A stretch of DNA of 61,506 bases from a bacterium (GCA_043719155.1 JAYSUJ010000038.1:1-61506); one strand, 5' to 3'; counted from the stretch's first letter, positions 56 through 13,292 are shown. Numbers and translations: made by a program. Notes: generated by a model not told the origin, from the letters alone.

Positions 56-1327
56 TTGGGAGTGGTTTTTAAATTCTTAAAAGGGAGCGGGTCTAATGAT
101 TTAATACCTCAAAGTATTAATCCTCGTAAAATCACTAAAGCAGAAATTAAAGTATTGGAAGACTCACTTACTAAATTTGGTTTAGTTGAAATACCAGCTG
201 TGAATTTTGATAATACAATTCTCGCAGGTCATCAAAGGTGTATGATTTTAAAATTACTAAATCGTGGTGAAGAATTAATTGATGTTAGATACCCAAATAG
301 ACAGCTTGATACAGATGAAGCAAATAAGTATTTGCTGTTAAGTAACAAGTCAGGTGGCACTTGGGATTATGATCTACTTAAGAAATTTGACATGGGAATA
401 TTAGAGTTTGCGGGGTTCGATAAAATTGAATTATCAAAAGAATGGGATGGAATGCCTATTAAAAAAGTAAAAGAATTTGATGTAGATAAAGCTGTCAAAG
501 AAGTTAAAAACCCTATCACTAAGCTCGGAGATAGAATATTACTTGGAGATAATGTTCTCATCTGTGGTGACAGTACCGATTCAGACACAGTTAAAAGATT
601 AATGAATGGTAAAAAAGCTAGTCTCATAAATACAGATACGCCCTACAATCAAAATCTTGACTACAATAAAGGTGTAGGAGGTAATAATTCTAAAAGAAAT
701 TATGGCGGCGATGTGCAAGATGATTTACCAGACAGTGAATACAAAGAATTCGTTAGAAAAATAATGAAAAATGCACTCGATAACTCACATGAAGATGTAC
801 ATGCATTTTTCTGGTGCTCAGATTATTACATTTGGGTATTTCAAACGAACTATTTAGAGCTTGGACTGCAAAACAAGAGGGTTCTATCTTGGGTAAAAAA
901 CAATGCCTCGCCGACACCTATGGTCGCATTTAACAGAGCTACTGAAAGCTGTTGCTATGCAGTGAGAGGTAAACCGTATCTAAATGATACTATTAATAAT
1001 CTAAACGAGATACAAAATGATGATATCGGTACAGGTAATGAAATGCTAGATAATCTAAATAACTTACTTTTAGTTAAAAGATTATCTTCTAATAAATATC
1101 AGCATCCAACCGAGAAGAATCCTGAGGTTCACTTTAAAGCTTTAAAACGTTTCTCTAAAATAGGTGACATAGCACTCGATTTAACTGCTGGATCTGGCTC
1201 AATATTGACTGCGTGTCATGAGTTAAAGCGCATAGCATATATGTGCGAGCTCAATCCTGTATTTTGCGATGTAATAGTTAAAAGATATGAATTGTTAACT
1301 GGTAAAAAAGCAGAATATATTAAATAG
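56..1327 (+). CDS. ParB-like nuclease domain fused to N6-adenine/N4-cytosine DNA methyltransferase (phage type)
   Basis: N-terminus has INPRKI...ILAGHQR (ParB-like). A central TDTPYN (DPPY-type catalytic motif) precedes the C-terminal DLTAGSGS (FxGxG SAM motif), which is the beta-class order. The track uses a TTG start. Confidence 0.8.
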   Translation: MGVVFKFLKGSGSNDLIPQSINPRKITKAEIKVLEDSLTKFGLVEIPAVNFDNTILAGHQRCMILKLLNRGEELIDVRYPNRQLDTDEANKYLLLSNKSGGTWDYDLLKKFDMGILEFAGFDKIELSKEWDGMPIKKVKEFDVDKAVKEVKNPITKLGDRILLGDNVLICGDSTDSDTVKRLMNGKKASLINTDTPYNQNLDYNKGVGGNNSKRNYGGDVQDDLPDSEYKEFVRKIMKNALDNSHEDVHAFFWCSDYYIWVFQTNYLELGLQNKRVLSWVKNNASPTPMVAFNRATESCCYAVRGKPYLNDTINNLNEIQNDDIGTGNEMLDNLNNLLLVKRLSSNKYQHPTEKNPEVHFKALKRFSKIGDIALDLTAGSGSILTACHELKRIAYMCELNPVFCDVIVKRYELLTGKKAEYIK

Positions 1328-1328
1328 T

Positions 1329-1703
1329 ATGAAAACTAATCTCAAAAAAGAACTGCTCGAGCAACTGAAGACTATACCCATAGTGGAGCTAGCTTGTAGC
1401 AAGGTAGGAATATCTAGGCAGACATACTATCGCTGGTTAAAGTCTTCCAAAGATTTTTCTCTTCAAGTTGAAGAATCTAAAAAGCAAGGTGTTTCCTATG
1501 TAAATGATATGACTGAAACTGAACTCTTGAATTTAATTCAAGACAAGAATTTTCAAGCTGTAGCTTTTTGGTTAAAACATAGACATCCTGAGTATAGGAA
1601 TAAAGTGGAAATTACAACAGCAGAAAAAGATAAGGAATTAACCAAAGAGCAAAAAGAAATCATTAGTCAAACTATAAAGCAATTAACTAATCATGAAAAC
1701 TAA
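1329..1703 (+). CDS. HTH protein, putative terminase small subunit
   Basis: HTH-like segment VGISRQTYYRWLK. The gene lies immediately upstream of TerL and overlaps it by 11 nt. Confidence 0.5.
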   Translation: MKTNLKKELLEQLKTIPIVELACSKVGISRQTYYRWLKSSKDFSLQVEESKKQGVSYVNDMTETELLNLIQDKNFQAVAFWLKHRHPEYRNKVEITTAEKDKELTKEQKEIISQTIKQLTNHEN

Positions 1704-3168
1704 AATCATAATACCGAACAATCGTGCCGAAGCTGTTAAAAATCTAGATGACCCAGCCATTAGGGTTGGGGTGACAAAAAATTCTTTTCTTTTGTTTTTA
1801 CAAATATATTTTCCACATCATTTAAATTACAAATTAGCATATATGCACATGGAAATGATAAATATTTGTGAGTCTACAGAAATTGAGCTAGCCCTCATCA
1901 TGGCTTTTCGTGGATCAGGTAAATCTACCATTGTGTCTAATGCTTACCCGCTTTGGGCAATATTAGGAGCTCAAAAGAAAAAGTTTGTAGTCATAATTAC
2001 TAAAACTATTGATCAAGCTAAAATCATAATGAGAAACATTAAATCCGAAGCCGAAGACGAGGGATTTCTTAAAAAAGATTTAGGACCTTTTAAAGAAGTC
2101 TCTGATGAATGGGGAGCAGAAAGTATAATCTTCAAAAATGAAGATGCTAGGATTATGGTTTTATCTATTGAAAAAAGTTTAAAAGGTATAAAGCATAGGC
2201 AACATAGACCAGACTTGATAATCCTAGATGATGTGGAAGACAATGAATCTACAAAGACAAGGGCTGGTAGGGACAAAACTTTTGAAAAGTATGTGCGTGA
2301 GATAGTCCCACTCGGTGATAAAAATACCAAGATACTCCATGTTGGAAATATGCTACATAATAATTCTCTCATGATGCGATTATCTGAAAATATCTTAAGT
2401 ACCGACAGTCATCAAGTCTTTAAAAGATATCCAATTATAGACGAGAAGAACAATATATTGTGGCAAAGTAAATTTACTGATCTTTTGGAAATTGAAAAGC
2501 TAAGAAAGAAAGTTGGAGATGAAGTGGCATGGCATTTAGAATACTTACTCAGAGTCATAGCTAATGTCGGGCAAATTGTTAACCCTAAAGATATACAGTT
2601 TTATGATAATATTCCAGCTAATAAAATATCTAGAGACGGATATTTTCCAACTAGGAAAATCATAGTTGGTATAGACTTGGCTATTTCTGAAAGTAACAAC
2701 GCTGACTTTACCGCAATAGTCCCAGTGCTATACAACAAAGTAAATGATAAATGGGAAGCCTATGTACTCAAAGAGTTTGTACATAAAAGACTACAATTTC
2801 CAGAAGTTATAAAAATAATAATGGAATTAAATAAATCATTAAAACTCTATACTAATAATATTGAGTTTGCAGTTGAAAGTGTGGGTTATCAAGAAGCAGT
2901 AGTACAAGCTGTAAAAGCTGAGGATGAATATGTAGAAATAGTTGGTGTAGGCGTAAGGCTAGGTAAAGAAGAAAGACTGAGATCCATTACTCCTATGTTT
3001 TCAAATAAATTACTATTCTTCCCAAGTGTTGGTGCTGAAGTATTGATAGAAGAGATTTTAGGCTTTGGTAGTGAAAAGCATGATGACTTGGTAGACGCTT
3101 TAGTGTATGCACTACGCCGTGGTTATGAAAGTATTTTAAATACTGAAGAGGTATTTATTGCAGAATAA
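1693..3168 (+). CDS. Phage terminase large subunit
   Basis: Walker A FRGSGKST, Walker B DLIILDDVED, and a C-terminal RNaseH-like nuclease region (GIDLAIS...DFTAIV...HDDLVDAL). The 491 aa size fits. Confidence 0.85.
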   Translation: MKTKIIIPNNRAEAVKNLDDPAIRVGVTKNSFLLFLQIYFPHHLNYKLAYMHMEMINICESTEIELALIMAFRGSGKSTIVSNAYPLWAILGAQKKKFVVIITKTIDQAKIIMRNIKSEAEDEGFLKKDLGPFKEVSDEWGAESIIFKNEDARIMVLSIEKSLKGIKHRQHRPDLIILDDVEDNESTKTRAGRDKTFEKYVREIVPLGDKNTKILHVGNMLHNNSLMMRLSENILSTDSHQVFKRYPIIDEKNNILWQSKFTDLLEIEKLRKKVGDEVAWHLEYLLRVIANVGQIVNPKDIQFYDNIPANKISRDGYFPTRKIIVGIDLAISESNNADFTAIVPVLYNKVNDKWEAYVLKEFVHKRLQFPEVIKIIMELNKSLKLYTNNIEFAVESVGYQEAVVQAVKAEDEYVEIVGVGVRLGKEERLRSITPMFSNKLLFFPSVGAEVLIEEILGFGSEKHDDLVDALVYALRRGYESILNTEEVFIAE

Positions 3169-4526: not shown

Positions 4527-4634
4527 AAAAGACTCCTCGCCATTGTTGTAAAAGTATTTCTACTTTTACACATACCAGTTTCCTAGTACGACCGCTACAG
4601 TGACTCTGACGAGGAGTCTTTTATACTGTAGCGG
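4527..4634 (+). promoter_or_regulatory. Highly structured non-coding element (nested perfect inverted repeats)
   Basis: A 13-bp stem pairs 4527-4539 with 4610-4622. An inner 10-bp hairpin pairs 4547-4556 with 4561-4570. A competing 9-bp pairing joins 4592-4600 with 4626-4634. No ORF is present. Confidence 0.4.
4585..4610 (+). repeat. Direct repeat copy 1: AGTACGACCGCTACA(GTG)ACTCTGAC
   Basis: Near-identical to 10700-10723. The two copies bracket the DGR/AAA+/vWA module. Confidence 0.6.
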
Positions 4635-4783
4635 ATTTAAAACCGTATTTTTCTGAAAAAAAACCTTAGGTTTCGTATTTAGAATAATAGCATATTCTCT
4701 ACTATTATTCTACCTATATTATATCGCAGAACCTTGAAAAGTTAGAGGATTGATTTTTAATTTTATGATATAATATATCTATT

Positions 4784-5164
4784 ATGGAAAACTTACAAAC
4801 ATTTTTAGAAAAAATAGTAAGCACGACTTCGGTGTCAGCTATTATCACCAGCAAAGAAAATGTTTCTGAAATAGAAAAAGTTTTAACTTCAAACTCTTTT
4901 TCTAAAACAGAAAACATTGATAAATTACAAGATAATTTAATTTTAAAAAGAAAAGTATTCATTTCTGATATTTATGAAAATAATGTTTTAGATTGGTATG
5001 ATGTAGCACATGGATTTTCTAGTGGGCAAATAATAATCGAAGAAAAAAACATTCGCATAAATCCTAATTATGAAAAGATGAATATTATCTATATTCTAGA
5101 AAAAGAAATAGTAGAAAAATATCCAAAATTATTAGAAGTAATTTCATTAACTTTAACAATGTAA
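4784..5164 (+). CDS. Hypothetical protein, first gene of the DGR target operon
   Basis: ORF with an extended -10 box (TGATATAAT at about 4766-4774) 9 nt upstream of the ATG. A 4-nt gap separates it from the next CDS. Confidence 0.5.
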   Translation: MENLQTFLEKIVSTTSVSAIITSKENVSEIEKVLTSNSFSKTENIDKLQDNLILKRKVFISDIYENNVLDWYDVAHGFSSGQIIIEEKNIRINPNYEKMNIIYILEKEIVEKYPKLLEVISLTLTM

Positions 5165-5168
5165 TTTT

Positions 5169-6842
5169 ATGATAACTCCAGAACAAAGACCATTGCAAGC
5201 TATAATTCCAGAAACTGTAAACGTGCATGGTATAGAATTAAAAAGAGCAAAAATAACAACAGGTGCTCCCAAAAAAGAATCCTTTACTGACTATGTAGAA
5301 GATGGTATGGCTGTAGAAATGCAACAAAAAGTTGCAAAGGCTTGGCTCATGGATGAGCCGGTACTACTTGAGGGAGGCACATCACTTGGTAAAACAAGAA
5401 CAGTTCTAAAGATGTGCTCCGATCTTGGATATGAAGCTCATAAACTTGTTCTAAGTAGAGAAACAGACAGAATGGAAATCTTAGGTAGTCCCACCGTAAA
5501 CCCAGATCAAGGTACAAAAACTGAAACTGGAGAAACTGATGAAAGAAAATTCATAATTGTGCTAAGTCAATTAGTAAAAGCTATACAACCAGAAGATGGG
5601 AAAATTAAAGTTTGTATTGTTGATGAATTTAATTCAGCTATGCCCGGGGTTGTTATACGTCTACATGAAATATTAGATGCATATAAATTTAATAGTTCGG
5701 AATTAGTTTTTGCCGAGCTTGGTGGGTTAAAAGTAAAGATAGACAGAAGTAAGGTAAAATTTGTTGCTCTAATGAACCCACCAGGAAATGGATATAGTGA
5801 CAGAAATCAAATTGATCCTGCAAACCTTCGTCGCTGGGTATATCAGAAACTACCAAACTCTATGCCAGAAGATGTACTTAGAGACTCAATAGATACAGTA
5901 TTTGGTTTAGATTCGAAAGCAAAGGCTGAAACTTCTGTTACTCCAATTTTGAATAATAAGGAAGCCTTACCTCTTTCAGAATTTGAAAACATTAAAGGAA
6001 TTAGAGAGATATTACCTCAGTATTTAGCTTTTCATGAATCAATAAAAGCACAAATAGGACAAAGGCAAATAGCAAATGGTCAGCCACAAAGATTTACTTT
6101 TGACGATAGAGAAGAACCAAGAAGAGTGAGAAATTACATTGCTCAATTCTATCGTGGTGATATAAATGAAACAATGCAAGAAGCTCTTAGATATATTTAT
6201 GGGGGTAAAATAACAGACGACACAGAAAAAGCGAAAGTAGAAGAAATCATAAGAAAAGTTGCAGTTTTAGACAGCTCAAACAAAGATCGTAAAGGTTTAG
6301 CTGAACATACAGCAGAATCGCAGCCAATTCCTAGTGACCCTGCTTTTTGGCAAAAACCGGACATACAATCCATCATGGATAAGGACTTAGTGAAAGGAGT
6401 AGAATCTTCTCCAGGTATCATAAATTTAGAAACGAAAGGTTTTAAAGGTAAAACAGCTACACAGCTTATAGATCAAGGTAAATATGACGATATAGGAAGT
6501 TATCCAAAAGAATATGATAGACCAGAAGATAAAATTACATCTGACTCTTTAGAGGTAACTTTTTTAAATCCTACTAAGTCTAGAAAAACTACTGATATAA
6601 AAGCTGAGATGGATAGGCTGGGAGTTAGACCTCTTAATGCCCATGAACTATATGCGCTAGGTATAAAATACCCAGAGTTACAAAGAAAACAAGCTTTAAT
6701 AGCTTTAGGTTCTGCTAAAACTTTCGACGGTGGTACTCGCTTCCCGTATCTCTGGAGGGATGGCTCTGGTCGTAAGGTGTTCACGGGTGTCGGTAGTGAC
6801 GACTGGAATGATATTTGTCGTTTCCCTGTTGTCCGTAAATAG
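5169..6842 (+). CDS. DGR variable protein: N-terminal MoxR/CobS-type AAA+ ATPase with C-terminal lectin-like variable domain
   Basis: Walker A GGTSLGKT and Walker B KVCIVDEFN. The last 40 codons form the VR (KTFDGGTRFPYLWRDGSGRKVFTGVGSDDWNDICRFPVVRK). Confidence 0.85.
   Translation: MITPEQRPLQAIIPETVNVHGIELKRAKITTGAPKKESFTDYVEDGMAVEMQQKVAKAWLMDEPVLLEGGTSLGKTRTVLKMCSDLGYEAHKLVLSRETDRMEILGSPTVNPDQGTKTETGETDERKFIIVLSQLVKAIQPEDGKIKVCIVDEFNSAMPGVVIRLHEILDAYKFNSSELVFAELGGLKVKIDRSKVKFVALMNPPGNGYSDRNQIDPANLRRWVYQKLPNSMPEDVLRDSIDTVFGLDSKAKAETSVTPILNNKEALPLSEFENIKGIREILPQYLAFHESIKAQIGQRQIANGQPQRFTFDDREEPRRVRNYIAQFYRGDINETMQEALRYIYGGKITDDTEKAKVEEIIRKVAVLDSSNKDRKGLAEHTAESQPIPSDPAFWQKPDIQSIMDKDLVKGVESSPGIINLETKGFKGKTATQLIDQGKYDDIGSYPKEYDRPEDKITSDSLEVTFLNPTKSRKTTDIKAEMDRLGVRPLNAHELYALGIKYPELQRKQALIALGSAKTFDGGTRFPYLWRDGSGRKVFTGVGSDDWNDICRFPVVRK
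6719..6840 (+). repeat. DGR variable region (VR)
   Basis: 122-nt repeat aligned to TR without indels. There are 14 mismatches, 12 of them opposite TR adenines. Confidence 0.9.
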
Positions 6843-7175
6843 ATCTTGATCTTAAAATATTTATCTTTTGAATCTTTTTATTTTTCTTTTTTGATATATA
6901 ATATATATCGAGAGTATGGAATCTATACATGTACATGTTATATGCATGCCAGAAATCAATACACCTAAACGTCAGATTATAAGATTTTGTGCCTTTGCTC
7001 ACAGAGGGTAAAGGAAAGTTTGAAAACCTTGGTTTTCAAAAGCGCAAAATTTTTTAGAGTACTTTAGGGTTTCTTTGAAACAGTATTTGGTGTATATAAT
7101 AAATGTATTTAAATACAGACAAATTTTCAAACATTGTATAAGTATGATGTTGGTGGCATAGACTATTATATACGC

Positions 7176-7297
7176 AACTTTCGACGGTGATACTCACTTC
7201 CCGTATCTCTGGAGGAATGACTCTAGTCGTAAGGTGAACACGAATATCGACAATGACGACTGGAATGATATTTGTCGTTTCCCTGTTGTCCGCAAAT
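7176..7297 (+). repeat. DGR template region (TR)
   Basis: The invariant copy is non-coding in context. Read in the variable-protein frame it has Asn AAC/AAT codons at the variable sites. Confidence 0.9.
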
Positions 7298-7313
7298 GCA
7301 TGAATCAAAAAAA

Positions 7314-7345
7314 GAAAAGCACTAGTATTGATACTAGTGCTTTTC
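7314..7345. terminator. Perfect 14-bp hairpin (GAAAAGCACTAGTA-TTGA-TACTAGTGCTTTTC) between TR and avd
   Basis: It overlaps the avd stop codon. On the minus strand it is followed by a T-run, so it looks like the avd terminator. On the plus strand it sits about 17 nt after the TR end. Confidence 0.6.
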
Positions 7346-7732
7346 TGATTCCTTTAAGGCTTTATTATACCAGCCTGATAAAATTTTACTACATTCATCT
7401 AACTCTTTTATCAAATGTTCAAATTGTGATAATTTTATAGCATTAATTTCTGTGCCGATGCCTAATAGAAATTTTGTAGTGTCCAAATTCATGGATGCTC
7501 TTTTAATTAAAATGGGTCTAGTTTTATCTTTTGTGTTTATGGCTAAATGTATATCACTTATACAATTCACAAAAAGTGTGTCTATTTTTGTGCCTAAACT
7601 ATATCTATGAATTTTAGGAAATAGTATAATAATACTATGCCAAATTTTATAAGCAGTTTGAACTTTCAGAATAATTGTGGGTGTAGTATAGGTAGCGGTC
7701 ATACTAATAAATACATTATACAATATAATCAA
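7334..7732 (-). CDS. avd: Avd-like four-helix-bundle accessory protein (likely start at the internal Met, about 7702)
   Basis: The LFPKIHRYSLGTKID pattern and about 120 aa size are typical of Avd / S23-IVS four-helix-bundle proteins. It sits between TR and RT but on the opposite strand. Confidence 0.75.
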   Translation of the reverse strand: MIILYNVFISMTATYTTPTIILKVQTAYKIWHSIIILFPKIHRYSLGTKIDTLFVNCISDIHLAINTKDKTRPILIKRASMNLDTTKFLLGIGTEINAIKLSQFEHLIKELDECSKILSGWYNKALKESEKH

Positions 7733-8662
7733 TTAATTACACTAGAAAATTTGTATCGCTCTTGGGAAAAGTTTAAGAAAAGTAAAAGTAGCAGAGATGA
7801 CGTGGATAAGTTTGCGGTAAACTTGTTTACCAATCTTTTAAAAATAAAAAATGATTTGGAGCAGAATAAATTTGTTCACGATTCTTATCAAAATTTCATA
7901 GTATTTGACGTCAAAACTAGAATAATACATAAAGCAACTATCAGGGATAGAATTGTAAACAGATTAATGTATGATGAATTGGTTAAAATTTTTGATAAGA
8001 AATTTATTTTTGACTCATATTCTTGCAGAAAAGGAAAAGGCACTTTAAGAGCTTTGGAAAGGTATAAATATTTTTTTGGAAAAATTACAAAAAACTATAC
8101 AAAACAAGCTTGGGTTTTAAAGTTTGATATCAAAAAATGCTTTCAAAATGTAGACACAGAAATTTTAAAAAACTTACTTCAAAAACAGATTTGCGAATCA
8201 AATTTTCTAAACTTGAATTTCAGTATCATAGACTCATTTAAAAAATATGACATGGGCTTACCTTTAGGTAATTTAACATCTCAAATTTATTTAAATATTT
8301 ATTTGCACCAATTAGATTTTTATTGCAAAAATACTTTGAAAATAAAATACTATATCCGCTATGCTGATGATGTAGTTTGCATGTTTGAAAGTGAAGAATT
8401 TGCAGAAGAAACTCTCAAGAAGATACTTGAATTTACAAAAAATAAGCTAAAAATTGAACTACACAAAATACAAATTAAAACTATCTATAGTGGGACAGAT
8501 TTTTTAGGGTGGAAACATTACAAAAGTCATAGAACTATGAGGAAAAACACAGCATCTAAAATGATAGAAAATTTATCTGACAAAAATATCACAAGTTATC
8601 TGGGCTTACTTAATTTTGGAAGTGGCTATAAATTACAAGAAAAAATCAAAAAAATGATATAA
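7637..8662 (+). CDS. DGR reverse transcriptase
   Basis: Has LPLGNLTSQ (the DGR-specific [I/L]GxxxSQ motif), an IRYADDVV (YxDD) catalytic box, and RDRIV and DSYSCRKGKG motifs. The true start is uncertain because the annotated 5' end overlaps the avd 5' end. Confidence 0.9.
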   Translation: MPNFISSLNFQNNCGCSIGSGHTNKYIIQYNQLITLENLYRSWEKFKKSKSSRDDVDKFAVNLFTNLLKIKNDLEQNKFVHDSYQNFIVFDVKTRIIHKATIRDRIVNRLMYDELVKIFDKKFIFDSYSCRKGKGTLRALERYKYFFGKITKNYTKQAWVLKFDIKKCFQNVDTEILKNLLQKQICESNFLNLNFSIIDSFKKYDMGLPLGNLTSQIYLNIYLHQLDFYCKNTLKIKYYIRYADDVVCMFESEEFAEETLKKILEFTKNKLKIELHKIQIKTIYSGTDFLGWKHYKSHRTMRKNTASKMIENLSDKNITSYLGLLNFGSGYKLQEKIKKMI

Positions 8663-8672
8663 TGTAACTATT

Positions 8673-10607
8673 ATGAAATTAGAAAGTTTGAGCCCTATTA
8701 AAAATCCATTGGAACAATTTTCTCCTAAAGAAAAAGACACTATCCTCTCTAGACTTGCTGTTCTAACGCCACTTTGTCATATGGTTTCTGGTGATATACA
8801 AATGAAAGTGGAAGTAAATGGAGATGCTGGTTGGCATTGGGACTTTGAACATAATGTAGTTAGATGTGATCCAAAGGATTTACTCGAAAAACCAATTGAT
8901 TATTTAAGATTTGTAATGCAACACGAAGCTGGACACAGGAAAGTTACAAGAGTGAAAGGCGTGATCCCAGACGAAGTATGGGATCAGCCAGGATTTTCTT
9001 TTATGATCAATGCCATAGAAGACCCCAGAATGAATAATTATGTGGCAGACACAATTCCAAAATTTAGAGATGAAATGATTTTTAGTTATGGTCTAGATAA
9101 AGATTTTGAAGTAGAGATGAGAGCCAAAGCAAAAGATAAAACTGGGCAAATTCCAAGATTCATGCAGGCTGGTTTTGAATATATAAATTTATGGCTACAA
9201 GAAGTTAAAGGTACTCCAAAACAAATTGATCCTAGTTTGCCCGAAGATGTAAAAGCGGTAATAGAAAAAACTTTAGAAGCGGCTAGAAGTAGCTGGCTAA
9301 CTTATCCAACCAGAAAAGAAGTGGATAAAGGGGCTATGGTTTCGGGTAAAACATTAACAGGCGAAGAAACCATAACTGAATATGCAAGAGCAAGTTATCA
9401 GGTTAATTTAAACGATGTCTGGCCTCTGTTTAAGACTTTAATTGACCAAGATATAGAGGACTTAAAAGATCAATTAAAAAAAAAAGGTAAAGGTGGTGAT
9501 AAGGGTGAGAAAAGCAAAGACAAAGCCGACACTGGAAAACCAGAAGATTCAGAGTCAGGAGAAGAAAATGAACAAGGTGGAAGCGATGAGCAAATGACAG
9601 AATCAGAAGCGAGAGAACTTGCTACGCAAATAATTAAAGAAATAGAAAAAGCTTTAAACGAACATTTCGAAAGTAAAGACGAGTCTAAAGATGTGCCACA
9701 AGGTAAATCAGAAAAACCCAAAGAAGCTGATCAGCCAACAAAAACATCAGATAGAGTAGATAACACGGAAGATGCTAAGGTAGAAAAAGATAAAATTCAA
9801 CAAGCCCTAGATGAGATTAGAAAAAAATTCGAAGCAGAAACTCCAAAAGGTTTATATAGAAAAACTTTAGCTGAAGTATCTCCTATTATAACTAGACTAG
9901 AAGATGAACTAAGAGAAATCTTTGTGCAAAGGAAAAGAAATGCTTTTTTTTCTGGATTTAGATCAGGTGTGCAAGTGGATATAAAAAGAGAAATAGCTAG
10001 CGAGATGACAGGAGTACCAGACGCCAATACTTTTATGAAAAGAGAGCTACCTCTTGAGCACGATTATGCAATAGAAGTTCTAGTTGATTTGTCTGGCAGT
10101 ATGAGAGGTCAAAAAATTGACGAAACCTACAAAGCTGTAGTTGCACTCTGCGAAGCGTTAAAAAATATTGGAATAAATTTATCAGTGACAGGTTTTAATG
10201 ATAGACTTTATCAATATAAAAATTTTGATCAGAATTATACAGATGATTTAAGAGAAAATACAGAAAGAATGCACGCTGAGGTAAGTGGTAGTGGTGCTAG
10301 ATATAACGACGATGGCTGGGCAGTAAAAGAAGTGGCAGACAGAATTAAAAAAAGAAAAGAAAAAAGAAAAATAGTCTTTGTGCTATCTGACGGCTTGCCA
10401 GAAGAATCTCCTCAACATCAAAATTTTGAACTAAAACAAATTGTAGCTAATATTGAAGCTGAAAAAGAAATTCATATTATAGGTCTAGGTATAGGCCCAG
10501 GTACTGGTCACGTTAGTCGTTTTTATTCTGACAACTTAGCTGATGTTTCTCTTGCAGAATTTGCACATAAATTAGCTATAAAAGTTAGAGAAGCTGTTGA
10601 AAACTAA
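8673..10607 (+). CDS. Zincin-like (HExxH) N-domain, acidic/Lys-rich linker and C-terminal vWA domain protein (DUF2201/CobT-like partner of the AAA+)
   Basis: Has MQHEAGH, a low-complexity KKKGKGGDKGEKSKDKAD...ESGEENEQ linker, the MIDAS motif VDLSGSMRG, and VFVLSDG. Confidence 0.75.
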   Translation: MKLESLSPIKNPLEQFSPKEKDTILSRLAVLTPLCHMVSGDIQMKVEVNGDAGWHWDFEHNVVRCDPKDLLEKPIDYLRFVMQHEAGHRKVTRVKGVIPDEVWDQPGFSFMINAIEDPRMNNYVADTIPKFRDEMIFSYGLDKDFEVEMRAKAKDKTGQIPRFMQAGFEYINLWLQEVKGTPKQIDPSLPEDVKAVIEKTLEAARSSWLTYPTRKEVDKGAMVSGKTLTGEETITEYARASYQVNLNDVWPLFKTLIDQDIEDLKDQLKKKGKGGDKGEKSKDKADTGKPEDSESGEENEQGGSDEQMTESEARELATQIIKEIEKALNEHFESKDESKDVPQGKSEKPKEADQPTKTSDRVDNTEDAKVEKDKIQQALDEIRKKFEAETPKGLYRKTLAEVSPIITRLEDELREIFVQRKRNAFFSGFRSGVQVDIKREIASEMTGVPDANTFMKRELPLEHDYAIEVLVDLSGSMRGQKIDETYKAVVALCEALKNIGINLSVTGFNDRLYQYKNFDQNYTDDLRENTERMHAEVSGSGARYNDDGWAVKEVADRIKKRKEKRKIVFVLSDGLPEESPQHQNFELKQIVANIEAEKEIHIIGLGIGPGTGHVSRFYSDNLADVSLAEFAHKLAIKVREAVEN

Positions 10608-10699
10608 TTTTCCCCTTACCCCACAAGCTCACCATATAGACCTTTCCCCCTTCTGCATAGTCTTAGCAAAAGACTCTTTTTCTGTCATTAATATATATA

Positions 10700-10723
10700 G
10701 AGTACGACCGCTACATACTCTGA
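10700..10723 (+). repeat. Direct repeat copy 2: AGTACGACCGCTACA(T)ACTCTGAC
   Basis: Matches 4585-4610 and is also preceded by CAAAAGACTC, as copy 1 is. It lies about 10 nt upstream of the recombinase ATG. Confidence 0.6.
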
Positions 10724-10732
10724 CAAATATAT

Positions 10733-12052
10733 ATGAAAATGACACAAAATATAGGTAAAATAGAAAGTAATATAGTCTTTAAGGAAGAAGAAACTAAATA
10801 TGTACTGTACTCTCGTAAAAGTACTGAAGATGATGAATCACAAGCATTATCAATAGAATCTCAAGTAAAAGAAATGTTTGCTATTGCAGAGCGAGAAAAG
10901 CTCAATGTAGTAGAGATAAAAAGAGAAGCTCATAGTGCTAAAGCTTCAGGTCAGCGTCCAGTATTCTTAGAAATACTTAGTGATCTTAGATCTGGTAAAT
11001 ATAATGGCATACTGACATGGGCACCAGACAGACTAAGTAGAAACGCAGGAGATCTAGGCTCACTGGTAGACCTCATGGATCAAAAGAAATTAGCCCATAT
11101 ACAGACTTTTACTCAAAAGTTTACTAATGACCCCTCTCAGAAGTTTTTACTCATGATACTGTGTTCTCAGGCTAAATTAGAGAATGATAATAAGAGTATA
11201 AATGTAAAGCGTGGACTAAGAGCAAAGGTAGAGCTAGGATTATGGCCTGCAGTACCACCAGTAGGCTATTTAACTTCTAGTAATAAAGGAGATAGTGGTG
11301 TAGCAGTCATAGACGAGATAAGATCTAAATTGATCAAAGGAGCTTTTGAGAAAATAGGTTATGACGGTTGGAGCGGTGTTAAATCATATAACTGGCTGAG
11401 TAATGAAATGAAGTTTAAGGCTCCAAAGAATAAAACGCTCAGTAAAGGTAATTTCTACCTAACCCTTCGTAATACTTTCTATTACGGAGTCTTTGAATAC
11501 CCTAGAGAAAGTGGTAATTGGTATAAAGGGATACATACTCCGATAATAACTAAAGAATTATTTGATCTAGTACAACAAAGATTAAAAGATAACGCTCAAA
11601 GCTCAGGACCTAGGAATAAAGAATTTGCTTTTACTAGATTACTCACTTGTGGTAGCTGTCAGTCAGGCGTAACAGCTGAGGAGAAGTTTAAAGACTTGAA
11701 AGACGGTGGTAGAAGTAGGCATGTGTACTACAAATGTACTAGAGTAAGAGATCTTGAATGTTCAAATAGAATGAATGAAGGTGATCTCATAATTAAGTTA
11801 AAGATACTAATAGATACTATAGATTTAAATAGACTAGCTCTTAAAGAGAAAATACAGAAAGAAGTGACTAGATTTAAAAGATTTCAAAGTAGATTACTAC
11901 TAAATGACAGTAAGATAGTTTTAAAAGAAATAGACATCAGAGAATATGTAAAGTTCATATTAGATGAGGGAGAATTGGAAGAGAAAAGAGAAGTGCTGAA
12001 TTGTTTGAAAGGTAATTTGATATTTAGTAAGGATAAATTAATTTTAAAGTAA
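10733..12052 (+). CDS. Large serine recombinase / integrase
   Basis: Resolvase-type catalytic N-terminus YSRKSTEDDESQALSIESQ, WAPDRLSRN, a recombinase domain, and a Cys-rich zinc ribbon (CGSCQSG...YYKCT). Confidence 0.85.
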   Translation: MKMTQNIGKIESNIVFKEEETKYVLYSRKSTEDDESQALSIESQVKEMFAIAEREKLNVVEIKREAHSAKASGQRPVFLEILSDLRSGKYNGILTWAPDRLSRNAGDLGSLVDLMDQKKLAHIQTFTQKFTNDPSQKFLLMILCSQAKLENDNKSINVKRGLRAKVELGLWPAVPPVGYLTSSNKGDSGVAVIDEIRSKLIKGAFEKIGYDGWSGVKSYNWLSNEMKFKAPKNKTLSKGNFYLTLRNTFYYGVFEYPRESGNWYKGIHTPIITKELFDLVQQRLKDNAQSSGPRNKEFAFTRLLTCGSCQSGVTAEEKFKDLKDGGRSRHVYYKCTRVRDLECSNRMNEGDLIIKLKILIDTIDLNRLALKEKIQKEVTRFKRFQSRLLLNDSKIVLKEIDIREYVKFILDEGELEEKREVLNCLKGNLIFSKDKLILK

Positions 12053-13206: not shown

Positions 13207-13292
13207 TGGTGCGGCGAGAAGGATTTGAACCTTCGAAGCCCGAAGGCGCCAGATTTACAGTCTAGTGCGATTGACCACTCCGCCATCGCCGC
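13207..13292 (-). tRNA. tRNA-Tyr (GTA), long variable arm, CCA encoded
   Basis: Cloverleaf read by hand: acceptor GCGGCGA/TCGCCGC, anticodon loop CTGTAAA, variable arm GCCTTCGGGC, T-arm GAAGG-TTCAAAT-CCTTC. Confidence 0.85.

Follow-up and report, generated by a model that had tools for sequence, protein, structure and literature searches.

The locus

The window analysed here, a 61,506-nt (61.5-kb) stretch of bacterial DNA (GCA_043719155.1 JAYSUJ010000038.1:1-61506), carries host genes closest to those of Parcubacteria, Paceibacteria, and Saccharibacteria MAGs. Near its left end lies the cassette of a diversity-generating retroelement (DGR) in which all core parts are present and intact, a fresh example of the already-known CPR-type DGR. 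The cassette and its surroundings comprise the following features, with the evidence for each in brackets.

56-3168, plus strand: ParB-methyltransferase, small terminase, and large terminase, a phage-type module at the left contig end (PHROG)
4784-5164, plus strand: small ORF of 126 aa directly upstream of the target, a conserved partner of the ATPase gene (locus comparison)
5169-6842, plus strand: target gene of the DGR (557 aa), encoding a MoxR/NorQ-type AAA+ ATPase, a disordered linker, and a predicted C-type-lectin-like variable domain (Pfam, AlphaFold, Foldseek)
6719-6840, plus strand: variable repeat (VR), forming the final 40 codons of the target (exact comparison, repeat finder)
6843-6895, plus strand: T-rich stretch directly 3' of the VR that holds a degenerate CTT(N)G repeat and takes in the palindrome AGATCTTGATCT at 6841-6852 (motif counts)
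7084-7178, plus strand: conserved structured RNA element of ~95 nt with three helices, abutting the 5' end of the TR (covariance model R1)
7176-7297, plus strand: template repeat (TR), non-coding, with 32 adenines (exact comparison)
7313-7346, no strand assigned: 15-bp hairpin starting 16 nt after the TR (hairpin search)
7334-7702, minus strand: avd, the accessory gene (122 aa if started at the ATG at 7702; the ORF stays open to a TTG at 7732) (PHROG, Pfam, NCBIfam)
7637-8662, plus strand: DGR reverse transcriptase (RT), 341 aa, start codon uncertain (RVT_1, PHROG 1423, PDB 8ub7)
8673-10607, plus strand: CobT-like VWA protein, 644 aa, presumed partner of the AAA+ target (Pfam, PDB)
10733-12052, plus strand: large serine recombinase, likely the integrase of the DGR-carrying element (Pfam Resolvase and Recombinase)
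13207-13292, minus strand: tRNA-Tyr, a candidate integration site and right-hand element border (tRNA search)

Adenine-biased differences between the repeats

The initial annotation had described an ungapped VR/TR alignment of 122 nt, which we reproduced by exact comparison and with an independent repeat finder (family D1); the two copies are 89% identical and their homology ends sharply on both sides. Exact alignment also returned the 14 mismatches reported there, 12 of them at TR adenines (10 A>G, and 2 A>T at the adjoining positions 6780 and 6781), and the accompanying translations, with ten amino-acid changes of which four are at Asn codons, were exact. Mismatches thus occur at 12 of the 32 TR adenines versus 2 of the 90 other bases (Fisher p = 1.1e-6), and the bias runs in one direction, with 10 changes from A in the TR to G in the VR and no G>A or T>C. 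The spectrum is less random than classical A-to-N, A>G making up 10 of the 12 adenine changes. With 23 diversifiable codons, the TR could specify ~10^18 possible peptides.

The remaining two differences, at 6794 and 6836, are C>T changes in third codon positions, each synonymous in context; they show either that the last homing was some time ago or that the TR has drifted. The change at 6836 had been taken for an IMH/IMH* difference; this reading found no support, as the sister pair is identical at that position and CGC>CGT leaves the amino acid unchanged. Save for this single C/T, ~40 nt at the 3' ends of the VR and TR are invariant, and the 3' end of the VR reaches the stop codon of the target CDS (TAG, 6840-6842). 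There was no second VR within the 61.5-kb window. Directly 3' of the VR we saw no clear GC-rich IMH or strong hairpin, just the weak 4-5 bp palindrome AGATCTTGATCT. The T-rich stretch that takes in this palindrome is possibly a target-site element: a CTTNG array is found 3' of the VR across the clade (2.8 versus 0.48 per 120 nt in 66 related TR units), and in the same units the distances between motifs peak at 8 and 16 nt. Strict CTTNG matches in the window number only 2.

Reverse transcriptase, Avd, and gene order

The RT, for which an alternative 303-aa form starting at the TTG at 7751 has been called elsewhere, matched Pfam RVT_1 (4.1e-24) and PHROG 1423 (4.8e-78). The closest solved structure was the Bordetella DGR enzyme bRT (8ub7, E = 1.9e-28), with the next match at 5e-12 and retron-type and group II intron RTs at ~1e-11 to 1e-12 in the PDB search. 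Its LGNLTSQ and YADD motifs, already picked out in the initial annotation, align to IGSLTSQ and YMDD of bRT. By sequence similarity the RT belongs to the DGR clade, and its nearest homologues are in Patescibacteria MAGs; in the scheme of Roux et al. 2021, CPR-type DGRs reportedly correspond to RT clade 2. No NCBIfam RT family matched the window RT at cutoff, the sub-threshold likeness being to group II, Drt3a, and retron RTs.

An Avd-like ORF, noted initially with no strand given, matched PHROG 3206 'Avd protein of DGR' (1.4e-13), Pfam bAvd (7.5e-10; 39.7 bits, just under the cutoff of 40), and NCBIfam DivGenRetAVD (1.2e-11; 44.8 bits, well under the cutoff of 80). It lies on the minus strand, convergent with the TR and divergent from the RT, and its position and strand are the same in all related loci. 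The 122-aa form was also called in L092, a contig of the same organism from another sample. Among 80 RT-related Patescibacteria loci, 63 had an adenine-biased TR/VR pair, and in all 63 a minus-strand avd comes just after the TR; exceptions to the layout were one inverted VR (L151) and longer spacers in L146 and L161.

A partial gene duplication beside an unrelated RT (of a retron, group II intron, or defence system), with an adenine bias produced by chance or by transition bias, could draw on the 10 of 14 differences that are A/G transitions and on the sub-threshold NCBIfam similarities. We consider this scarcely credible and effectively refuted, given the directional bias (p = 1e-6), an RT whose match to the DGR bRT far exceeds those to all other solved RTs and which is at cutoff in no NCBIfam RT family, the presence of Avd, and a geometry and bias common to at least 60 related loci.

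The order of the cassette is target-VR, a spacer of ~335 nt, TR, inverted avd, and RT. The word 'textbook' in the initial annotation holds with one reservation: the inverted avd 3' of the TR is of the CPR type and not of the Bordetella order (mtd-avd-TR-brt in phage BPP-1, where avd lies between VR and TR). The cassette does share with the BPP-1 DGR the RT family, the (I/L)GxxxSQ and Y(M/A)DD motifs, Avd, an adenine-specific flow from TR to VR, and a C-terminal variable domain of predicted C-type-lectin fold. The layout appears to match architecture B3 of Wu et al. 2018 (PMC5758913), an equation that we infer from their text, a passage of which gives B3 for 90% of CPR DGRs. The Patescibacteria host, the RT relatives, the gene order, and the inverted avd are all as in CPR DGRs, and we found no essential difference from them.

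A structured RNA 5' of the TR and a hairpin 3' of it

Immediately upstream of the TR we found a three-helix RNA that is conserved across the clade and missing from Rfam. The helices in the window are P1 (7090-7101/7164-7175), P2 (7105-7108/7113-7116), and P3 (7130-7134/7147-7151), and the conserved single-stranded motifs are UUGG, an A-rich AAAUAAAAUACA-like motif, GGUGG, and AUAGA. Covariance model R1, built from 59 other loci with the window, L093, and L001 left out, matched the 61.5-kb window just once, along the whole model and on the plus strand (51.5 bits, E = 5e-10), with every P1 pair intact. Across the alignment 95.5% of cells were paired versus 68% in shuffled and 31-51% in slid controls, and double changes were seen in 19 of the 21 pairs. 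A search of Rfam with the element returned nothing even at E <= 10; the Rfam RT-10/RT-n motifs (Weinberg et al. 2017) had no match in the window at gathering score, and the RT-n motifs none at E <= 10 in window positions 6800-7800 or L096 positions 5100-6100. This covarying RNA beside the TR, with no Rfam entry, is what is novel here; Midasin/AAA-fused CPR DGR targets were known before.

On the other side of the TR, the hairpin at 7313-7346 is followed by a T-run on the minus strand, the avd side, and is the minus-strand terminator for avd. It probably also marks where the TR RNA ends on the plus strand; when the alignment of 66 related TR units was inspected visually, most showed an equivalent plus-strand hairpin followed by TTTTGTTTT. 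The cassette has its RNA domain 5' of the TR and a terminator at once after it, with no clear GC-rich IMH or strong hairpin 3' of the VR, whereas BPP-1 has a functional spacer (the Rfam RT-10 motif region) 3' of its TR, between TR and brt.

By analogy with Bordetella, the 5' domain (7084-7175), the TR, a short linker, and the hairpin (to ~7346) would form a stand-alone, plus-strand non-coding RNA with these transcription boundaries, in which the 5' domain may recruit RT-Avd or act in priming. The RT and a pentamer-forming Avd would copy the TR RNA into cDNA, misincorporating opposite template adenines, and the cDNA would replace the VR, that is, the last 40 codons of the gene at 5169-6842.

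The target ATPase and its presumed VWA partner

The target protein consists of an ATPase (residues 1-377), a linker (~378-459), and a lectin-like domain (~460-557). The ATPase matched Pfam AAA_5 (4.8e-9) and has Walker A (GGTSLGKT, residues 69-76) and Walker B (CIVDE) motifs in its sequence; an AlphaFold model of residues 1-377 had pLDDT > 90, and its best Foldseek matches were NorQ (9qh8, E = 8e-13) and CbbQ (6l1q). No Pfam family covered the C-terminal domain. A model of residues 445-557 (pLDDT 85.9) had as its top 29 PDB matches in Foldseek exclusively C-type-lectin-like folds, with probabilities of 0.57-0.98, TM of ~0.5, and weak E-values (0.06 or worse), so that the VR sits, on the predicted structure, within a C-type-lectin-like domain. 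A short lectin-like domain fused to an AAA/Midasin-type ATPase, with the VR at the C-terminal end of that domain, is again as in CPR DGRs (the 'UVR4'/g1 category): UVR4 targets are said to match Midasin AAA in a passage of Wu et al. (PMC5758913), and the AAA ATPase-CLec fusion is given as the commonest CPR target architecture in a passage of PMC10907252 that cites Paul 2017.

Just downstream of the RT, the VWA protein has a MIDAS motif (DLSGS, residues 472-476) and an HExxH motif (HEAGH, residues 84-88), and matched Pfam CobT_C (6.5e-15) and VWA (3.3e-9) and the PDB structure of CobT (9uka, 2.6e-11). An AAA_5 ATPase of the MoxR class with Walker motifs, adjoining a MIDAS-bearing VWA gene, is the arrangement of MoxR-VWA pairs (NorQ/NorD, CbbQ/CbbO, CobS/CobT); the gene pairing recurs in L004, L007, and L093, and by this analogy the target most likely works with its CobT-like neighbour. 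The small ORF upstream of the target has counterparts of like size and position in L001-L003 (126 aa), L004 (141 aa), and L007 (150 aa), its homology being confirmed by a phmmer match in L001; it had no match in Pfam, PHROG, NCBIfam, or PADLOC.

The pair might instead be a CobS/CobT cobaltochelatase, auxiliary metabolic genes as phage homologues are annotated, with the DGR beside them by chance. The PHROG labels ('porphyrin biosynthesis', 'aerobic cobaltochelatase CobT') and the PDB match to CobT fit this, but the NCBIfam CobT score was 49.7 against a cutoff of 759, the nearest folds of the ATPase are the remodelling enzymes NorQ and CbbQ, the VWA protein has the extra HExxH motif, no CobN or cobalamin gene was among the annotated window genes (roughly half of the large ORFs), and a DGR-diversified lectin-like domain on the ATPase would be senseless for a chelatase. 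We regard a cobaltochelatase as very improbable.

The target could also be an extracellular adhesin or receptor-binding protein of a phage-like element or of an episymbiotic cell, like Mtd of BPP-1. In favour are the surface or tail location of classical DGR targets, the apparent phage-like element around the cassette, and the attachment of CPR cells to hosts. Yet inspection of the 557-aa target by eye found no signal peptide, transmembrane segment, or structural-protein domain, tail and capsid genes are absent nearby, and the N-terminal two thirds of the protein are a cytoplasmic-type AAA+ ATPase with a VWA partner, making a surface role decidedly unlikely. Because no signal peptide is evident, the target is presumably cytoplasmic. 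It differs from the tail fibre of BPP-1, being an ATPase fusion in which the DGR would vary a minimal C-type-lectin-like domain tethered by a disordered linker of ~80 residues. In a putative role as an intracellular sensor or binder working with the VWA protein, its variable domain would pick a ligand and the ATPase-VWA machine would act on that ligand or signal.

DGR-linked MoxR-vWA VMAP ternary systems (Kaur et al. 2020, PMC7159879; Dore et al. 2024, PMC10907252) likewise have a DGR-diversified lectin-like domain within the module and no evident signal peptide. We rejected a VMAP ternary conflict system for this locus: neither a VMAP protein as third component, nor an effector of the trypsin/caspase or TIR kind, nor an adaptor domain turned up in the adjacent genes with Pfam and PADLOC, and the lectin domain is on the ATPase, whereas in the systems of Kaur et al. 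2020 (PMC7159879) it is on the vWA protein. Their hosts are a multicellular cyanobacterium or Chromatiales, as against a reduced-genome CPR and an apparently mobile element here. No PADLOC model matched the window cassette.

Apparent mobile-element context

The genes of the left-hand module matched, in order, PHROG 498 (3e-71), 309 (8.7e-12), and 38 (2.3e-74), and large terminases of Mu-like phages were matched by tblastn. A homologous cassette in L004 is flanked by the same ParB-methyltransferase/terminase trio, and recombinases homologous to the one in the window adjoin the cassette in L001 and L004 and lie within 6 kb of it in 8 more loci. From 13.7 kb on, cellular genes take over (T2SS/type IV pilus F and E, SecD, glycosyltransferases). 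Since the cassette has terminase genes on one side and, next to tRNA-Tyr, a serine recombinase on the other, the DGR module appears from its gene neighbourhood to be cargo of an integrated phage-like element, a putative prophage. We found no att repeat, and no capsid, portal, or tail genes were in view, the left end running off the contig. This context and the CobT-like VWA partner add to the CPR DGRs of Wu et al. (PMC5758913), a passage of which speaks of 'essentially no information' on CPR DGR phage association.

It is conceivable, at somewhat under even odds, that patescibacterial DGRs have an undescribed template-RNA architecture (a three-way junction 5' of the TR, perhaps a leader-linker helix closing the TR, and an immediate terminator) and that their cassettes are carried by integrating phage-like elements. 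If so, this arrangement would take the place of the 3' 'Sp' spacer, by which priming is controlled in Bordetella, the RT-Avd-RNA particle would be organised differently from that of Bordetella, and the ATPase-lectin cassettes would be mobile, programmable intracellular binders and not cellular surface-protein diversifiers.

Activity of the lineage

We put at about 85% the probability that the cassette is a complete, functional DGR of the Patescibacteria (CPR) clade working by the RNA/RT/Avd mechanism proposed above. The alternative of an inactive relic, in which homing has ceased although RT, Avd, and TR can still be recognised and the VR/TR differences date from past activity, is unlikely. 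It would account for the two accumulated non-adenine differences, and it fits the lack of variants in public collections: no near-identical copy of the window VR turned up when three collections were scanned for exact patterns, and the 90%-identity protein cluster of the target has a single member. Against it, all ORFs are intact with catalytic motifs, the 5' RNA element still scores at E = 5e-10 with all P1 pairs kept, both non-adenine changes are synonymous, and a sister lineage has several independent adenine-only VR variants. In that lineage the TR of L093 (TR93) differs from the VR of L009 at 16 positions, all 16 at adenines, and from its own cis VR at 20, of which 19 are at adenines. TR93 thus explains two sister VRs by adenine-only changes, which indicates an active lineage; for the window's own DGR, recent activity is supported only indirectly, through these related sequences. 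Two related proteins (P0122 and P0123) are further VR variants on a scaffold ~80% identical, with differences mainly in the VR. Also contrary to a relic, the L092 contig breaks exactly within the repeat, which is consistent with VR heterogeneity or repeat collapse.

The retroelement and its repeats

The initial annotation proposed a diversity-generating retroelement (DGR) with an adenine-specific template, and its parts lie as follows.

Features of the DGR cassette
5169-6842: target gene, an ATPase-lectin of 557 aa
6719-6840: variable repeat (VR)
7084-7178, plus strand: structured RNA element
7176-7297: template repeat (TR)
7313-7346: hairpin after TR, which also terminates avd
7334-7702 (or to 7732 with a TTG start), minus strand: avd, convergent with TR and divergent from the RT gene
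7637-8662: reverse transcriptase (RT)
8673-10607, plus strand: CobT-like VWA protein, the gene after RT

Exact comparison and a repeat finder returned the repeat as claimed, a gapless 122-nt pair of 89% identity whose similarity stops sharply at both ends. The computed alignment has 14 mismatches, 12 of them at TR adenines (10 A>G and 2 A>T), which agrees with the count made by eye; the rate is 12 of 32 for adenines and 2 of 90 for the remaining bases (Fisher p = 1.1e-6), and the changes run one way only, G>A and T>C both being absent. The translations offered for the two repeats, with ten amino-acid changes and four Asn codons, proved exact when checked against the sequence. The two non-adenine differences are C>T at 6794 and 6836, both at third codon positions and synonymous in context. 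That at 6836 had been linked to the difference between IMH and IMH*; since the VR/TR pair of the sister locus (L093) has no difference at this position, we do not read it as an IMH/IMH* signature. The 32 TR adenines give 23 diversifiable codons, or ~10^18 possible peptides, and a search of the 61.5-kb window found no second VR.

The ORF at 7637-8662 is an RVT_1 reverse transcriptase, as proposed, and its nearest solved structure is the Bordetella DGR RT of the bRT-Avd-RNA complexes (8ub7, E = 1.9e-28), with retron-type and group II intron RTs next, at E-values around 1e-11 to 1e-12. The LGNLTSQ and YADD motifs noted earlier are present and align with IGSLTSQ and YMDD of bRT. The Avd-like ORF is also real, with matches to the PHROG "Avd protein of DGR" (1.4e-13), to Pfam bAvd (39.7 bits, the cutoff being 40) and to NCBIfam DivGenRetAVD (1.2e-11, under the cutoff); its strand had not been given in the initial annotation. 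In their longest forms, the avd and RT ORFs share up to 96 nt (7637-7732) in head-to-head orientation. Gene calls on the identical contig L092, from the same organism in another sample, are shorter (avd from 7702, RT from a TTG at 7751) and leave 48 nt between the genes; the starts and divergent promoters are provisional. With the TR/VR bias, RT and Avd in place, the element is a complete DGR, and the reading given in the initial annotation is supported.

Directly 3' of VR (6843-6895) we observed an array of CTT(T/A/G)G motifs. Over the 120 nt that follow VR, 66 related TR units have 2.8 motifs per 120 nt against a background of 0.48, with spacing peaks at 8 and 16 nt and a 16-fold enrichment of CTTAG; the array is degenerate in the AT-rich window. 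It might substitute for the IMH-proximal hairpin of other DGRs.

A standard layout of the CPR clade

Relatives of the RT, at 39-54% identity, come nearly all from Patescibacteria MAGs, and the non-cassette genes of the window (type IV pilus ATPases, SecD, glycosyltransferases) are nearest to those of Parcubacteria, Paceibacteria and Saccharibacteria MAGs at 44-47%. Of 80 retrieved loci, 63 showed an adenine-biased TR/VR pair in a self-BLAST screen. All 63 have a minus-strand avd that begins 10-45 nt past TR, and a plus-strand RT. The common geometry is a plus-strand target with VR at its 3' end, a spacer of 260-420 nt and a plus-strand TR; the exceptions are an inverted VR in one locus (L151) and longer spacers in two others (L146, L161). 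According to Wu et al. 2018 (PMC5758913), the "B3" sub-architecture, which differs in avd/TR order and orientation, makes up 90% of CPR DGRs and is hardly seen elsewhere, and Roux et al. place CPR DGRs in an RT clade of their own, clade 2. The window cassette is a standard CPR-clade DGR, ordinary in kind and a very clean example. Both this kind of DGR and the target architecture are already known; what the locus adds is chiefly a conserved RNA domain 5' of TR, besides its phage-like surroundings and the reading of the target module as a MoxR-VWA pair. With all parts intact on a 61-kb contig, it offers a well-delimited reference case of the CPR type.

One related contig, L004, has two tandem template units at 8728-11449 (VR/TR 8728/9201 and 10429/10917), with an avd-like minus-strand ORF after each and only one RT; the second target has a much higher GC content than the sequence around it.

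Activity of the lineage

Exact-pattern scans with the 3' half of TR, adenines masked, found no near-identical copy of the window VR in metagenome, genome and viral contig collections. The sister locus L093 has an RT 81% identical to that of the window, and its TR differs from the window TR at ten positions, nine of them non-adenine. Compared with its own cis VR, the L093 TR has 19 of 20 mismatches at adenines, and compared with the VR of a 946-aa ATPase gene in another locus, L009 (MAG JAYVII010000046.1), it has 16 of 16 at adenines and none elsewhere; two related proteins, P0122 and P0123, carry further VR variants on the same scaffold. Because one TR fits two VRs in this way and further variants exist, adenine-specific rewriting has been repeated in the lineage, which is demonstrably active. 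That the window's own VR was "recently active", as the initial annotation had it, we infer. The contig L092 begins inside the 3' end of TR, as would happen if a repeat or VR heterogeneity had interrupted the assembly.

The lectin-like VR domain (74-81% identical) also occurs on a different ATPase of 930-946 aa and on a 271-aa protein (L009 7682-10522; P0122, P0123). For the L009 VR, which has no TR or RT within 10 kb, the template acts in trans and is a TR identical to the L093 one. Within the invariant 3' end of the L093 VR (1-135), 11 nt are tandemly duplicated (TGTCGTTTCCC twice), and the contig starts exactly at this VR; the duplication may be a homing or an assembly artefact.

A structured RNA upstream of the template repeat

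By aligning the 125 nt upstream of 66 TRs we found an RNA element with three conserved helices: P1, a 12-bp closing stem whose 3' strand ends beside the first TR base, and the hairpins P2 and P3. Its single-stranded motifs UUGG, AAAUAAAAUACA-like, GGUG and AYAGAUGG are invariant. Among 59 sequences, standard pairs fill 95.5% of cells compared with 68% in column shuffles and 31-51% with slid partners; double compensatory changes occur at 19 of the 21 pairs, and covariation scores 0.86 as opposed to 0.30. A covariance model (R1) built without the window, L093 and L001 (another related locus) has exactly one match in the 61.5-kb window, at 7084-7178 on the plus strand (51.5 bits, E = 5e-10), with 12 of 12 P1 pairs intact. 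R1 also recovers held-out loci; its matches there are always on the strand of RT, immediately before TR, and include contigs without a VR. The element precedes TR in more than 60 loci (e.g., L096 5412-5506 and L161 1747-1841). R1 can serve as a sequence-and-structure marker that finds TRs even with the VR off the contig, as in several loci.

No family in Rfam 15 matches the element even at E <= 10, the RT-n motifs of Weinberg et al. included; one of these, RT-10, is the spacer that separates TR from brt in Bordetella. Wu et al. 2018 (PMC5758913) make no mention of RNA structure. We believe that this conserved 5'-of-TR domain is uncatalogued. In most loci TR is followed by a short linker and then, on the plus strand, by a hairpin and T-run. 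The TR RNA therefore seems to be a non-coding RNA in its own right, some 270-300 nt long, whose structured domain lies 5' of the template. The CPR clade arranges avd and structured RNA unlike the only biochemically studied DGR system, and the RNA domain gives a testable handle on how RT-Avd recognises its template and primes in this clade.

Complementarity between the leader immediately before UUGG and the linker immediately after TR is commoner than expected across the 66 TR units (in the window, 7064-7083 with 7298-7325). Cognate leader-linker duplexes stand out from non-cognate ones (p = 1.7e-5) and from those with a reversed linker (p = 2e-4), and compensatory changes such as AUGAAGA/UCUUCAU to ACGAAGA/UCUUCGU were seen by eye, uncounted formally. 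Single-sequence MFE folding recovers this possible helix, P0, in 12 of 66 RNAs only; with its support statistical only, we regard P0 as a suggestive case of a helix closing TR into a loop.

The target protein and its putative VWA partner

The N-terminus of the target is an AAA_5 ATPase (Walker A GGTSLGKT, Walker B CIVDE), and residues 1-377 are modelled by AlphaFold at pLDDT > 90, with NorQ and CbbQ as top structural matches. NorQ and CbbQ are MoxR-class ATPases that work with VWA partners. A linker of ~80 residues with low model confidence follows, and then a C-terminal domain of ~100 residues. The full-length model gave the VR domain low confidence, and a domain-only run with a deeper alignment reached pLDDT 85.9; its 29 best PDB matches are without exception C-type lectin-like domains (probabilities up to 0.98, TM near 0.5, weak E-values). 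An exhaustive HMMER search found 863 relatives of this domain at E <= 1e-3, where a word-indexed search gave one protein; in most the domain is at the C-terminus of ~200-aa proteins, and in some it is joined to other ATPases or a kinase. No Pfam family matched consistently among 84 members tested, and a search of metagenome and viral contigs with the C-terminal domain for related loci found no match. The ATPase family is large in Patescibacteria, many members having VR-like tails. We considered the 560-710 aa targets of other loci as AAA fusions and rejected this, as they are PcfJ-like or unannotated. The ATPase-lectin architecture is on record in Dore et al. 2024 (PMC10907252), citing Paul et al., and Wu et al. 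2018 (PMC5758913) have UVR4 targets matching Midasin-AAA.

The CobT-like VWA protein has an intact MIDAS motif, DLSGS. Far upstream of it is an N-terminal HEAGH (HExxH, residues 84-88), which hints at a metallopeptidase-like N-terminal domain, one that Pfam does not report. The ATPase-VWA pairing recurs in L004 and in a further locus, L007, and a VWA gene follows RT in L093 too. The locus shows the AAA+ target as a MoxR ATPase of the NorQ/CbbQ type, encoded beside its presumed VWA/MIDAS partner, and suggests the hypothesis that substrates are brought to a remodelling machine by the variable lectin domain. In PADLOC, neither the ATPase nor the VWA protein nor the small ORF upstream of the target gene has a model, and the pairing corresponds to none of its known defence systems. 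Kaur et al. describe DGR-linked MoxR-vWA ternary systems whose VMAP and effector components are absent from the window module; those systems carry the lectin domain on the vWA protein, whereas here it is on the ATPase.

Genomic context

Features flanking the cassette
56-3168: ParB-methyltransferase, small terminase and large terminase, left of the cassette (PHROG 38 at 2.3e-74; tblastn matches to Mu-like phage terminases)
3592-3987, minus strand: GIY-YIG protein (PADLOC anti-phage model PD-T4-3, 8e-13; Pfam LEM-3_GIY-YIG)
4550-4672, minus strand: LOOT RNA (Rfam RF03000; 64.8 bits, gathering score 46.4)
10733-12052: large serine recombinase, right of the cassette, followed by tRNA-Tyr and then cellular genes

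The homologous cassette of L004 is framed by the same methylase, terS, terL and recombinase genes, a recombinase lies directly upstream in L001, and a homologous recombinase is found within 6 kb in ten TR-bearing loci. The terminases, recombinase and tRNA-Tyr around the cassette, and these same neighbours in relatives, argue that the DGR module is cargo of an integrating phage-like element whose left end is off the contig. No phage structural genes are visible in the window, the element extending past the contig end, and no att-like repeat of the tRNA-Tyr region was found elsewhere in the window. Wu et al. 2018 speak of "essentially no information" on the phage association of CPR DGRs, and the present locus ties such a DGR to terminase and integrase genes. 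The GIY-YIG gene is a possible defence gene in the DGR cargo region. Within the putative mobile element, the LOOT RNA has a bacterial-PH-domain gene on one side and, on the other, the small ORF that precedes the DGR target.
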